Virus record (IMG/VR): IMGVR_UViG_3300024496_000030
Location: 1 to 64,000 of that record
DNA from: a virus
Direction: 5' to 3' (one strand)
Length of the DNA: 64,000 nucleotides
The position numbers and the translations under genes are program-made. Below are positions 2,347 through 44,472 of this stretch, one piece after another; positions within the stretch are counted from its first letter, which is position 1; each line of letters begins with the position of its first letter. The notes below the pieces were generated by a model, which was not told the DNA's origin, made no database searches, and saw only the letters and a program-made list of their open reading frames with translations.

Positions 2347-5047
2347 GACTGTAATTAAACGGACTTTCCGCCCAAGCAAAACCAATATAAGTAGCTGCGT
2401 TGGAGTTGACGCTTGCGTCAGTTGTCCGCAGCTTGAAGCCGTTACTGGTGATGTCAAGCAGATCGGCGGTGCCTTCTGCGTCGGACAAGTTTGGATACAG
2501 CGGATCGTTGTCCACGTTGTAACCTTCGCGGGCTGTGTCTACCAATGTCCAGTTGCCAGTTGTACTGGAACATTTCAAAAGAATTAGACGCGGACGGAAT
2601 CCCAGATACACAAAGCTGCCATCTGTCGATCCATTGCCTGTGTAACTGAACCCATTACTGTACCCGACTACTGTGCTCCAGAGATATGCAATGTAATTCG
2701 TACTTGCAGCGTTTAAGTTATTCGTTGCGTTGTTGGTCACCATGAACTGGGTCGATGACCAGTTGCCGGTGCCAAACGGTGAGTTGGTGTTGGTGGACGA
2801 TGCCGTGCCATCCGTCTGGTTGCACTTCAGAAAATGGGTGGTGCTGGCCAGAGACCGGTGCCAGATGTAGAAGCTGCCGCTGCTGCGAGACTTGATCCAT
2901 GCCATGTCCACGGCCACGCCAAGAGAATGGCTGATGTTGCGGTTGCTGGTGTTGTCGCCTGCATACCCAACAATGTCAAACCCAGCCGTAACGCTCTCGT
3001 TCCAGCACCAGGCCACGCTGTTACCTGATGGAGCCGAGTAGGTGCCTTCTGCCGCATCGCTACTGGTGCTGATGATGGCGTTACCGCCACGGGTGGTGTC
3101 GAGCAACTGATGGTTGGTGCTGTTGTTGGCGCGGTCCTTAATCCAGATCAGGTCACCACCAAAGGTGAGCGCTTCTGCCGTCGAGCGGATATTGGCACCC
3201 GTGTCGGTAACAACTTGGAATTGCGTAGAAGGCTTTGTGACTAGTGGCGCCGGGAGGTTTGCGGTGCAGAGGGCTTTGAAGCCGCTGGGAGCGGTGTAGG
3301 CGAAACTACGAGCGCCTGTGTTTAACACGCAGCTTGTGCTCACATAGTCGTCTTTACCCCAAGAGGGGAAATAGGTTCCCGACAATCCTGAGTATGCAGG
3401 GTTAGTGCCAGTAGCAGGGTTTCCGCTTTCTTGCCAGGTTCCATTCTTTGAGAAGAATATCCTGCCAGCATCAAGATCAAGGGCCACCCCAACTACGTCA
3501 CCGTTAGTGTAAGTGCTGTAGCCTGTAGTTGTGTTGCTATTGTTATTTGCCTTGTAGCCACCTGATGCGTAAGCGTAAGCCGTTGAAGCACTGCCGAGAA
3601 AAGTCGAAAGGCTGCTGTCGCTTCTAGTGACACCAGTGCGGCAGGTTCCAGTAGATGTGATCGCAACCTCGAAATACCATTTCCCGCTACTCACTCCAAT
3701 TGTTCCCTGGGCTAGCGCATAGGAAGCAGTATTGGATTGACTCAGATCAAGATTGCCATTGCTGTAAGTTAGCTGGGCTGCAGAGTTAGCAAGCGGATTC
3801 CAAGTGCAATAGTTTCCCCTCACTTCCCCGCCCGCACCCGTATCAGTGCCGCTCGTAGTGGGAACGTCTACGAGGCTGTCGTTGCCAGCGGGAGTAATTC
3901 TAACCAACAAACTTCCATTGACATAAACTTCAAAAATGCCTGATTCGTGGCTACCTCCGACCCCGGCACTCATTCCTAAGCTGGTGAGTGTGCCGGGAGT
4001 ATTGGTTTGGTAATATTTATTATAGGCAGAGCTGTACCCATTCAGCCCATATGTCCCCGTTGCAGTTACTGCGGATCCATTGACAGATAGCACCGCTCCG
4101 GTGGCCGGATTGCCTAGCGCCCCATTGGCCATATTGCCATAGACAATTAGTAGTGAGTTGTAGGCTATAGGGGCAGTGAATGTAGCCGTGTAAGCCTGAT
4201 TGGTAGTGGAGGAATTACCCACTATTCCATCGAGTGCTCTATCAAGGTAATCTCCAGCGCCCGTGTAAGTATTTTGACTTGTGGTGGAAACACTAATATT
4301 GTTCGGCGTCCAGTTGTTGCCGTTGTTCGAGCCGTCCTTGCCCAGCGTGGTCGCGGTGTTAGACGAATTGTCCGCGAAATCGAGTTTGAACCCGTTGGTC
4401 CCGTAGGTGCCGGTGTACGCCTTGGGCACCCATACGCCTGTGGTGGCGTCGAATTGGCCAAAGCTGGTGGGGTCTAGGGCTTGGCCATCCACCAGATGCA
4501 CATCGGCCAGATAGGCATCGCAATAGCTATAGCCACTGGATCCCCATGTAGTCCCTATACGATTGTTTGAGTTCGCATAAATAAATCGACCAGTATCGTT
4601 TTGAGAGGGATAGACCGCCGTTGAAAAAGCTGTAACCCTAACCCCATTGACAAATAGCCGATAGCGATTGCTGCTTGTTGCATTAGTTGTGTCCCATACA
4701 AGGACGAAGTGATACCAGGCAGAAGGATCGCGGAATACTTGGCTTGTGGTCAGTGCAACATTGTAGCCAGGGTTTGTGACCGTAAAAGTATCGCCGGCAT
4801 CAAACTGAATGTAAGTCGCGTAGGTCGATGACCCGTCGTAGCCAGAGAATAAACAGCTTGTGGCTCCCAGTTTTGTCCGCTTGCACCACCATGAAAGTGT
4901 TGACGTTGTGTTGCTGGTGTTTGCGGATGAAACGGTGCGCCCGCAGTAGGCACTGTCACTACTATTAAATCGTAAGCTCCTGCTAACGTTGTACCCTGTG
5001 CTTTGACCGCCTGCACCCAGTAATGCAGGATTATGAAAAATCGACAT
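2336..5047 (-). CDS. tail fibre/receptor-binding protein with LamG/ConA-like and SPRY-like domains
   Basis: 903 aa, S/T/G/N-rich; FRDPSAWYHFV (LamG-like), SSGKWYFEV..GDVVGVALDLDAGRIFFSKNG (SPRY-like), C-terminal FAWAESPF. Confidence 0.8.
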   Translation of the reverse strand: MSIFHNPALLGAGGQSTGYNVSRSLRFNSSDSAYCGRTVSSANTSNTTSTLSWWCKRTKLGATSCLFSGYDGSSTYATYIQFDAGDTFTVTNPGYNVALTTSQVFRDPSAWYHFVLVWDTTNATSSNRYRLFVNGVRVTAFSTAVYPSQNDTGRFIYANSNNRIGTTWGSSGYSYCDAYLADVHLVDGQALDPTSFGQFDATTGVWVPKAYTGTYGTNGFKLDFADNSSNTATTLGKDGSNNGNNWTPNNISVSTTSQNTYTGAGDYLDRALDGIVGNSSTTNQAYTATFTAPIAYNSLLIVYGNMANGALGNPATGAVLSVNGSAVTATGTYGLNGYSSAYNKYYQTNTPGTLTSLGMSAGVGGSHESGIFEVYVNGSLLVRITPAGNDSLVDVPTTSGTDTGAGGEVRGNYCTWNPLANSAAQLTYSNGNLDLSQSNTASYALAQGTIGVSSGKWYFEVAITSTGTCRTGVTRSDSSLSTFLGSASTAYAYASGGYKANNNSNTTTGYSTYTNGDVVGVALDLDAGRIFFSKNGTWQESGNPATGTNPAYSGLSGTYFPSWGKDDYVSTSCVLNTGARSFAYTAPSGFKALCTANLPAPLVTKPSTQFQVVTDTGANIRSTAEALTFGGDLIWIKDRANNSTNHQLLDTTRGGNAIISTSSDAAEGTYSAPSGNSVAWCWNESVTAGFDIVGYAGDNTSNRNISHSLGVAVDMAWIKSRSSGSFYIWHRSLASTTHFLKCNQTDGTASSTNTNSPFGTGNWSSTQFMVTNNATNNLNAASTNYIAYLWSTVVGYSNGFSYTGNGSTDGSFVYLGFRPRLILLKCSSTTGNWTLVDTAREGYNVDNDPLYPNLSDAEGTADLLDITSNGFKLRTTDASVNSNAATYIGFAWAESPFNYSRAR

Positions 5048-33890: not shown

Positions 33891-34116
33891 TTTTATAAAT
33901 ATACCTAGATATAACGATTTTAGGTGCAATCAATACAGTACCAACGCCAGGAGAAACCCCCTAACTGCCTTAGAAATACCCATTTCATGGTAAAAATCCG
34001 GGCAGACATCAAGCTCGCTCTGCTCGCAGGCGGGTGCGAGAGGAAAAAAAGAAAGGGGCGGGGGATATGCTCCCTCCGGTCGCGTTAACAGCCGGAAGAG
34101 AGAGTTCTATTCGGTT

Positions 34117-35345
34117 GTGTTCTTTATTTTATTTATCGTCATGATCTACAGCGTGGAGATCAAGGAAGCGGGCGATGATTTTAGCCAGGCGTATATGTCT
34201 GGCTGCGAGGAGAAGTTTCATTCGGAGAAGGAAGCAGAAGAATATCTGCTGACGTTCGAAGAATGGGAACGTCCGATGCTTTGCATTCGGAAGTACGAAT
34301 GAAGATTAGGGGGAGCAACCGCTCCCTCCGGTCGCTTTTTGAGTTTTCCACAGGCTATTTTTACCCTATTTCCACCCTATTTTCCCTCAAATCCCTGTCA
34401 TACCAAGGCTTCTGACTACTATTTGCCTGGACATGTGTCACAACATGGCTTGCACTTTTTCCACAGGCATCAAATCTTTTTACTGGGATCTCAGCGACGA
34501 TTTGAAGGCTGTTTGGCTGTTTGTCAGCCTTATCTTCAACCCTGATTTTTATATAACTAGAAATACTTTTAGCAAGATTACCCAGAAGATTGCCTCCAGG
34601 AGCTATTTATTCCTCCTAGATGCAGTCCTCAGACTGCTGTTCTTTGCTTGTTTTCTCATGGAGAAGTTCGGTGCTGCAGTGTGCTGCGTTGCTATCGGCA
34701 TGGCAGCTTTCACTCAGTTAACGCTTCACTTGCTTGATCAAGCTACGGCTGAGCAATGCAAGAACCATGCGTGGCCTGCACACGCTGACCAGGTGCACCG
34801 TGACTGGTGCATCGCTAACAACTACGAACTCTGATCTCATGATCACGATTACTACTGAAGAAGGTCTCCTTCTCACTGATCAACGTGGCAACTATCTATA
34901 CGATGGGCGCCAGGGTGATCCTGTTCTCATCGAAGCGCCAGCAGGTCCAATCCGCTTTGGGTTGGAGGACATGCTGCGTTTCTGGACGACGTACTGCCAG
35001 TACGGCGACTATCAACTTCACCTGTGGTGAGTTTCCGCTCCCTACGGTCGCTTTCATACTGTATTAATCAGTAGAGAAAGTTCAGAACAAATTGTCCATC
35101 ATTACCTTCTCATTCCAATGAATCTCTTTAACAACCTTGTCAAGGCCAGCATTGCCGGTGGCGTTGTCATCGGTGGTGCTGTTGCCTACGCCAAGCTGAA
35201 TGACGAGCAGCGTCAGAAGCTCAACTCTGGTGTCAACAGACTGCGCCGCAAGGTGTCAGATCTAATTGCACCAAATGATGGTGTTTATACCATCCCCAAG
35301 GAAGTCGAAGCGGAGCTAGAAGCTCTGCTCAACGACGACAATTGA
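34117..35345 (+). CDS. cluster of small early hypothetical genes (34141-34302, 34658-34834, 34839-35030, 35118-35345)
   Basis: Short plus-strand ORFs separated by hairpins; starts approximate. Confidence 0.5.
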
Positions 35346-35419: not shown

Positions 35420-35644
35420 ATGGAATCTTTCATCTACGAGAAGGGCAACGACGGTTATCTCGTCACCATCCGTGGTGATTTTGCAGAGATGACCAAGGTT
35501 GACCTTGACCGTCAGGTGTCCAAGTACATCCGCTTGGAGGCACCTGTCGAGCATATCCGCTCCAGTGTGAAGAAGCTGCTGCACCAGGGTTATAAGCTGA
35601 GCAATCAGCTAGAACTTGGTTGGCAGCGTTTCATCGAAGCGTAG
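35420..35644 (+). CDS. early hypothetical protein
   Basis: ORF track; its stop codon abuts the hammerhead. Confidence 0.55.
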   Translation: MESFIYEKGNDGYLVTIRGDFAEMTKVDLDRQVSKYIRLEAPVEHIRSSVKKLLHQGYKLSNQLELGWQRFIEA

Positions 35645-35710
35645 GACGAAACCGGAGGGTGCTATCCGCTCCCTTCGGTCGCTCCCTGCTATGGGGAGCC
35701 TGATGAGTCC
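35644..35710 (+). ncRNA. type II hammerhead ribozyme
   Basis: GGAC-GAAA-[CCGGAGGG/CCCTTCGG]-TC^-[GCTCCCT/GGGGAGC]-CTGATGA-GTCC; all core nucleotides present; predicted cut after C35680. Confidence 0.9.
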
Positions 35711-35724
35711 CTGCTTTGCTCACC

Positions 35725-36576
35725 ATGTCACTTTCTGCTTTCCTCATTAACTTCATGAACCGCCACCGTGATCAGCTACCTGCTTACGTTGGCATTACTC
35801 TTGGCATGGGTATCGGCGGACTCCTGTGCGTTAGCTTGAACAAAGCGATTAATGCCAGGATCCTTGCAACCTGTGACAAGAACCTGAATCAAATCATCTA
35901 TATCAAGACAGCAGTAGGTGATAGCTACGGCTGTGTATCCAAGATGGTATTGAACGGGCCACCAGCTCCGATCAAACCATGAGAAAGATTTTATTCAATT
36001 CATTGATCTTAACGATCATCTTTTTGTTCTTCTGCCTCTAGTCATGACTGAACAAATGTATAGCCACGACACAATCTGGCTTCTTCTGCACAACATTCCT
36101 CTCATGGATTATGCACGCCAGGAGGAGCCAAAGCTGTGGAGAAAGTTCATGGAACTTGTTTCCAATGAAACTGCTCAAGGCTATCCCGATACATGGAACA
36201 CTACTTTCCTAATCAATAAGATTGCGGAAGATCTAGGTTCCTATCAACTGCTTCTAAATATCTGGTTGCAGATAGAGGAGCCGTTGAATGATGTTCTTAA
36301 TCCCATCCAGCGTGACTGGATTGATGCTCAACTATGAACAACTACACCTTTTATCTGCCTGGAATCAACAAGCTGACTGGTGTAAGCCAGGAGGATTGGG
36401 ATTTCCTTTGCGAACGTGCAGCAGAGAACAACGTTCTACCTGCCACGCTTGCCGCCAGGATTATCGCCAACGAGTTGGCTCAATGGCGTGATGAGATTCA
36501 TTACGCCGATCAACAGGAAGGGCTTCGTGCAAATGAAGCCATGAACCAAGAGAAAGTTATTGAAGAGATTGTTTAA
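35725..36576 (+). CDS. three early hypothetical genes (35725-35982, 36044-36337, 36334-36576)
   Basis: ORF track, coupled organisation. Confidence 0.5.
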
Positions 36577-36684
36577 TCTTTTCTTTATCTTTCCAGATGT
36601 CTGCACTTTGGGATCTAGGCCTTAGCTTAGTTCCCTTTCTGCAGGCTTCACTTGCCTGCTTTGTACACCTACCTAGACAACACC

Positions 36685-44394: not shown

Positions 44395-44472
44395 AAAAAA
44401 ATGGACCGGGCACCACCCCAGTCCAGAATCTGCTTTGCACACACAGCCTTCAGGATTCCTTTCTGAAGCTGC
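44395..44472 (-). ncRNA. candidate trans-acting sRNA (~78 nt)
   Basis: TAGACT -10 at 44484-44479; 5' hairpin GCAGC-TTCAG/CTGAA-G-GCTGT; unpaired GUGUGCAAAGCAGAUUC; terminator TGGACTGGG-GTGGTG-CCCGGTCCA-T7 with a G-U pair valid only on the minus strand. Confidence 0.7.

Follow-up and report, generated by a model that had tools for sequence, protein, structure and literature searches.

The window analysed here is the first 64 kb (64,000 nucleotides) of an 83,116-bp IMG/VR virus record that was judged 97% complete. The genome is that of an uncultured freshwater cyanophage-like virus. Its large terminase shares 64% identity with the terminase of the cultured relative S-EIVl, a Synechococcus phage from polar fresh water. 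The stretch is present in both DNA and RNA runs from riverine metagenomes. Small genes on the (+) strand start near 34100, and a long (-) block of structural genes lies opposite. Two of these small (+) genes, an ORF for a 74-aa protein (35420-35644) that is encoded in 15 viral loci at 52-96% identity, and an ORF for a hydrophobic 85-aa protein (35725-35982) that is conserved in seven viral loci, are separated by an 80-nt gap. Neither protein has a PHROG match, a significant Pfam match or a family assignment; it is plausible, judging from their position, that the genes are early ones. The gap holds an element of 67 bases (35644-35710, (+) strand), which begins inside the stop codon of the 74-aa gene and ends 14 nt before the AUG of the co-directional 85-aa gene. 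The start of the element in the stop codon, as described in the initial annotation of this stretch, is borne out, since the UAG at 35642-35644 overlaps the first base of stem II.

The element is a complete type II hammerhead, with GAAA, CUGAUGA, GUC, the G10.1-C11.1 pair and three stems. The 5'-proximal strand of stem II, GGAC (35644-35647), ends with C11.1 and can be extended to 35641 with a bulged C. It is followed by the core bases G12, A13 and A14 together with A15.1 (35648-35651), which are invariant across the orthologues described below. Stem III (35651-35679, strands 35651-35659 and 35671-35679) is a hairpin of 9 bp when the A15.1-U16.1 pair (A35651-U35679) is included; it contains one G-U pair, a U-U mismatch and two distal G-C pairs, and is closed by the loop UAUCC. 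The scissile bond predicted from the hammerhead consensus (PMC3088659) lies between C17 and N1.1, at 35680-35681. The stem I hairpin (35681-35699, strands 35681-35687 and 35693-35699) has six Watson-Crick pairs and a closing U35687-G35693 pair around the loop GCUAU, and leads into the core bases C3 to A9 (CUGAUGA, 35700-35706) and the 3'-proximal strand of stem II, GUCC (35707-35710), which starts with G10.1 and forms a 4-bp stem with GGAC. The following bases, 35711-35714, are able to lengthen this stem.

These features agree with the accepted definition of the motif. Besides CUGAUGA, the core has GAA at 35648-35650, and H17 is C35680 and not G. The core-adjacent pairs G10.1-C11.1, A15.1-U16.1 and N1.1-N2.1, which form the acceptance rule of Perreault et al. 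(PMC3088659), are all present (G35707-C35647, A35651-U35679 and G35681-C35699). Loops close stems I and III and stem II is open, which is the type II topology. The earlier identification of an intact type II hammerhead is therefore upheld, every defining feature at the sequence level being found and the helices being backed by covariation among orthologues and across a wider family. CUGAUGA, GAAA, GUC, the GGAC/GUCC stem II and the 7-bp stem I were all located correctly in that annotation; its stem III is a genuine helix, and the count of 8 bp differs from ours because it omits the A15.1-U16.1 pair.

Folding of 35640-35715 gives precisely the hammerhead three-way junction as the structure of minimum free energy (-37 kcal/mol, z -3.3); none of 200 shuffled sequences was as stable, and the junction is retained when the site is folded in a 231-nt context. 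A descriptor covering hammerhead types I, II and III, run on both strands of the 83,116-bp genome, gave 35644-35710 as its sole match. In 300 Markov-shuffled genomes the same descriptor found 0.14 loose matches per genome, and none with at least 4, 6 and 6 bp in stems II, III and I, respectively.

The equivalent gap carries an intact type II hammerhead in the viral loci L007, L008, L009/L011 and L023. The stem I sequence of L009 is wholly different (GGCCACU/AGUGGCC) and its pairing is kept, L023 replaces a C-G pair of stem I by U-A, and L008 has a compensatory change from G-C to A-U in stem II. N7, the only position that is free in the consensus, is the sole core base that varies among the orthologues (U, C or A). 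Over five orthologues, 97% of the cells are paired, and none of 500 shuffles was as good; six pairs show double changes, distributed over all three helices (two in stem III and three in stem I), and sliding the partner strand by 1-3 columns lowers the pairing to 33-61%. One further orthologue, otherwise identical, has an A at G10.1 (L010:3214-3283), which breaks the G10.1-C11.1 pair; this allele may be inactive, or the base may have been misread in sequencing. In the distant relatives L012-L016 (about 3201-3300), a terminator-like hairpin with a U run replaces the ribozyme in the gap, which would fit a common role of ending or insulating the upstream message. A blastn search with 4 kb found nothing similar in a phage collection.

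A covariance model built from the five orthologue sequences, termed R1, scores the window site at 95 bits and gives no other significant score in the genome. The several ribozymes per operon found in some phages were thus not seen here, the descriptor and the R1 model both giving a single copy in 83 kb. In a pattern scan of viral contigs, the motif was found in at least 119 loci, compared with roughly 8 expected by chance according to our own estimate, and 117 of 119 of these loci hold a structurally valid copy. R1 has 171 matches in 0.85 Mb of these loci. Among 140 distinct family sequences, in an alignment fitted to the R1 model, 97.6% of the cells pair as against 66% in shuffles, with 725 double-change cells; in this model-fitted alignment the double changes affect 17 of 20 pairs, including seven of the nine in stem III. 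All but one of 213 family members (212) have C at H17. Cellular genomes (596 Gb), by comparison, gave 82 pattern matches where about 65 are expected by chance, again by our own estimate, and 25 of the 82 are structurally valid. By these counts the R1 subtype is mainly viral, the cellular total lying near the chance level.

The placement of the family follows a consistent rule. For 255 distinct members, the midpoint falls in a same-strand ORF in 13% of cases, compared with 64% of random positions. A co-directional stop codon precedes the ribozyme by a median of 4 nt, and the next ATG follows its end at a median distance of 25 nt; copies are spaced about 570 nt apart, with up to 12 per locus. 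The window site conforms to this rule in being intergenic, between co-directional genes and on the coding strand.

A search with the Rfam hammerhead models, which the initial annotation had put forward as a check, did not confirm the element at the cut-off. No family was reported at the gathering threshold over the whole window, the hammerhead models gave no match at E<=10 in 551 nt around the site, and RF02276, searched over the whole phage genome, picked an unrelated 10.9-bit site and not the ribozyme. On a 96-nt slice, the single hammerhead result was a truncated Hammerhead_3 match of 15.1 bits spanning the 3' strand of stem III, GUC, stem I, CUGAUGA and GUCC, as would be expected because a circularly permuted copy would score in this way against a type III model. 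Against the RF02276 gathering score of 37 bits, the window copy reaches at most 15 bits. The RF02276 model, as aligned to two copies from the viral locus L074 that exceed the cut-off, has a 2-bp stem II, a UGG in loop I and a GCCAA tail, the last two being the type II pseudoknot partners according to Perreault et al. (PMC3088659). Rfam misses the window copy because this architecture of a 2-bp stem II and a pseudoknot is absent from it. The failure is a limit of the curated model and not a defect of the motif, and the copy still lies outside the Rfam family as its gathering score defines it.

Most type II members have loop I joined to the tail 3' of stem II by a pseudoknot of at least 4 bp, which is not obligatory (PMC3088659). 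In the window copy, loop I can form at most one Watson-Crick pair with the 3' tail, and a pseudoknot with the 5' flank is likewise absent, so that a full core occurs here without a recognisable Watson-Crick contact between stem I and stem II. Within the wider family, 18% of 256 members have the loop I/3'-tail pseudoknot, compared with 5% of controls. As the pseudoknot that speeds many type II hammerheads is absent, it is uncertain how fast the window copy would cut at cellular Mg2+. Members of the pseudoknot-free subclass that has a 4-bp stem II (viral loci L024-L142) show signatures of their own: an A adjoins the 5' side of stem II in 93% and its 3' side in 70%, and about 90% or more close stem I with a U-G pair that follows six Watson-Crick pairs. 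The window copy carries A35643 and U35687-G35693, two of these signatures, which may substitute for the missing tertiary contact and possibly form an undescribed one. Hammerheads with and without the pseudoknot are also found together. L009 and L011 each have a second type II hammerhead at 44-101, situated some 3.1 kb upstream of the orthologous copy, in which loop I (UUGACAU) and the 3' tail (UGUCAC) form a pseudoknot of 5 bp. The L074 array (2224-2290, 2479-2545 and 3133-3201) combines pseudoknotted type II copies of the Rfam kind with six copies of the R1 subtype, and the two subclasses therefore coexist in a single operon.

In the closest relatives of the window virus, L002-L006, the hammerhead is interrupted. 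An ORF of 166 aa is inserted in loop I (L002:2682-3182); its product is of the homing-endonuclease type, combining an HNH_3 domain (35.7 bits) with a weak AP2-like one. The insertion has replaced the 3' strand of stem I together with C3, so that the core has become AUGAUGA and stem I can no longer pair. Both the 15-nt repeat discussed below and the 5' two-thirds of the ribozyme are retained. We regard these alleles, as read from their sequence, as natural ribozyme knock-outs, and the insertion suggests a role of the conserved ribozyme DNA as a homing site. The R1 model found no match in S-EIVl, although the empty answer of such a search carries little weight. The ribozyme would be dispensable, because close relatives carry a destroyed copy and S-EIVl has no R1 match.

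The cleavage strand had been described as a copy of a 15-nt repeat, and this is correct: 35668-35682 is the fourth copy of GCTCCCTNCGGTCGC in the window and supplies the 3' strand of stem III, GUC and the first two bases of stem I. The other (+) copies lie at 34069-34083 and 35037-35051, both without a hammerhead core, and at 34321-34335, where the 15-mer is accompanied by a hairpin, a U-rich tail and a weak R1 alignment. All four are among the first (+) gaps of the window, the gap at 34321-34335 lacking a hammerhead core like the other two, and relatives have two to five copies. We considered whether the copy at 34321-34335 is a decayed hammerhead and rejected this, its R1 score of 10.7 bits (E 1.1) not being significant. 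Cleavage of the other copies in trans was likewise rejected on inspection, since both substrate-binding arms are closed in cis hairpins and the sequence after GUC in those copies would pair with the stem I arm through only 2-3 Watson-Crick pairs, apart from G-U pairs. The repeat appears to be under a constraint of its own, because it is near-invariant apart from its N position, its flanks vary and some copies have no upstream pairing partner, and because stem III covaries freely across the family. In the endonuclease-disrupted alleles, GCTCCCTNCGGTCGC and its hairpin persist with compensated changes. These patterns point to a function of the 15-mer beyond the needs of the hammerhead stem.

Directly 3' of the ribozyme, the leader of the 85-aa gene carries a repeated motif, CCTGCTTTG(C/T)(T/A)CACC, that lies upstream of start codons (35711-35723, or about 35710-35724, on the (+) strand), with a second copy at 36655-36669. 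A candidate small RNA is encoded on the (-) strand at 44395-44472, with a terminator-like hairpin and a U run at its end. Bases 35711-35719 are perfectly complementary to GCAAAGCAG, its seed, near 44425-44433, and the predicted small-RNA target site does follow immediately after the ribozyme. It had further been proposed that processing and antisense control meet on this one leader; the adjacency holds, and the functional link, drawn from adjacency alone, does not follow, because the leader motif also precedes the gene at 36655.

What we observe is a statistically significant motif that is conserved, shows covariation and has the placement described above; from this we infer cleavage, the nature of the resulting ends and a physiological effect. 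Most probably, the type II hammerhead cleaves itself after C35680 and separates the 74-aa and 85-aa cistrons. The ribozyme would be transcribed within a (+) polycistronic phage message, the three-way junction would fold once 35644-35710 had been made, and self-cleavage would fall between C35680 and G35681. The 74-aa message, upstream of the cut, would keep its stop codon and have the stable hairpin of stem III at its 3' end, C35680 bearing a 2',3'-cyclic phosphate, and the downstream 85-aa message would start with a 5'-OH on G35681, the stem I hairpin coming first, 44 nt before the AUG. As the 4-bp stem II alone joins the two products, they would part readily, and the neighbouring messages would be uncoupled in stability and translation.

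The transcript data come from assembled metatranscriptomes. In two studies, the RNA contigs stop at 35628 or 35639 and resume at 35698 or 35714, with no loose ends; a DNA contig runs through, and the RNA contig resuming at 35698 has the bases of the intact allele. RNA contigs also break at other intergenic gaps. In a third RNA library, a 2.7-kb contig spans the site uncut; it may represent carried-over DNA, because it also crosses a divergent intergenic region at flat depth. Given that this evidence consists of assembled contigs, which cannot reveal RNA ends, the breaks around 35680 are a weak hint at cleavage.

Other explanations of the site have to be weighed against self-cleavage. A chance match to the hammerhead consensus, arising from two ordinary intergenic hairpins, might be invoked because Rfam does not call the site. 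It is refuted by the lack of comparable stems in shuffles, by the covariation in three helices, by the invariant core of the orthologues and by the score of 95 bits in a 171-member family, and we assign it a vanishingly small probability. The small RNA and the leader motif raise the question of whether the ribozyme is a regulated switch, in which the small RNA bound at 35711-35723, or a terminating ribosome, would alter stem II and so the cutting. Such a switch is compatible with a seed complement that adjoins the 3' side of stem II, where 35711-35714 can extend the helix, and with a stop codon that overlaps stem II here and in the orthologues, in a family with a median distance of 4 nt from stop codon to ribozyme. 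The leader motif, however, precedes other genes that have no ribozyme, so that the adjacency is expected from position, and the small-RNA site leaves the core 4-bp stem II uncovered. We therefore consider regulation of this kind very unlikely.

The 15-mer gives rise to two further possibilities. The stem III hairpin with its 15-mer may itself be the real element, recognised by a protein or a polymerase or acting as a processing signal, at the level of DNA or RNA, the ribozyme being slow, redundant or decaying. The almost invariant 15-mer, with its four window copies and two to five in relatives, in a family whose stem III covaries, speaks for this proposal, as do the copies without a pairing partner, the compensated survival of the 15-mer and hairpin in the disrupted alleles, the missing pseudoknot and the S-EIVl genome without a ribozyme match. 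Yet stems I and II, CUGAUGA and GAAA lie outside the 15-mer and are nevertheless conserved with compensation in L007, L008, L009 and L023, which a bare hairpin signal does not predict. The two readings are compatible, and we judge it quite unlikely that the hairpin and not the ribozyme is what matters at this site. No RNA polymerase was found among five large ORFs, and a role of the 15-mer as a hairpin promoter is therefore without support. It is also conceivable, and in our view unlikely, that the ribozyme deliberately shares its substrate strand with GCTCCCTNCGGTCGC, and that the reader of this sequence, be it a protein, a polymerase or a hairpin-dependent process, controls the cleavage or is controlled by it; as part of this proposal, the other three GCTCCCTNCGGTCGC copies would be the signal without the ribozyme. 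If true, a separate regulatory motif would serve as the foundation of a self-cleaving ribozyme and be coupled to it. Self-cleavage between the two cistrons remains our preferred reading of the locus.

Our analysis adds a well-supported hammerhead to a freshwater cyanophage-like lineage; a literature search found no paper tying hammerheads to cyanophages. Since a large, mostly viral, pseudoknot-free subclass lies below the Rfam cut-off, database annotation undercounts phage ribozymes. The natural knock-out alleles, together with the 15-nt element that shares the substrate strand, offer the most useful leads.

In bacteriophage T7, RNase III processing hairpins are located between early genes. 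The arrangement proposed here resembles the T7 sites in that an early polycistronic message is cut between cistrons and a hairpin is left at the upstream 3' end. The difference lies in the agent of cleavage: in T7 a host protein cuts, whereas here the RNA would cut itself, leaving a 5'-OH and a cyclic phosphate.

The closest known systems are the clustered prophage hammerheads described by Perreault et al. in 2011 (PMC3088659), of which several tandem sets cleave in vitro and in vivo, and for which it was proposed that long phage transcripts are processed into single-gene mRNAs. A later review considered the purpose of such ribozymes to be still unproven (PMC6765202), and the endonuclease-disrupted sister alleles could reveal what an intercistronic ribozyme does for the phage, a question that this review leaves open. 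By its sequence features, the window element is a type II hammerhead of the intercistronic kind known in phages since 2011. It shares with the phage type II hammerheads (PMC3088659; RF02276, clan CL00010) the catalytic core and the permuted topology, as well as the placement between co-directional genes and the proposed role in cutting mRNA. It departs from the RF02276 consensus in having a 4-bp stem II (GGAC/GUCC) in place of 2 bp, a longer stem III and no pseudoknot, and from the clustered phage hammerheads in that the window virus carries one copy per genome rather than an array.
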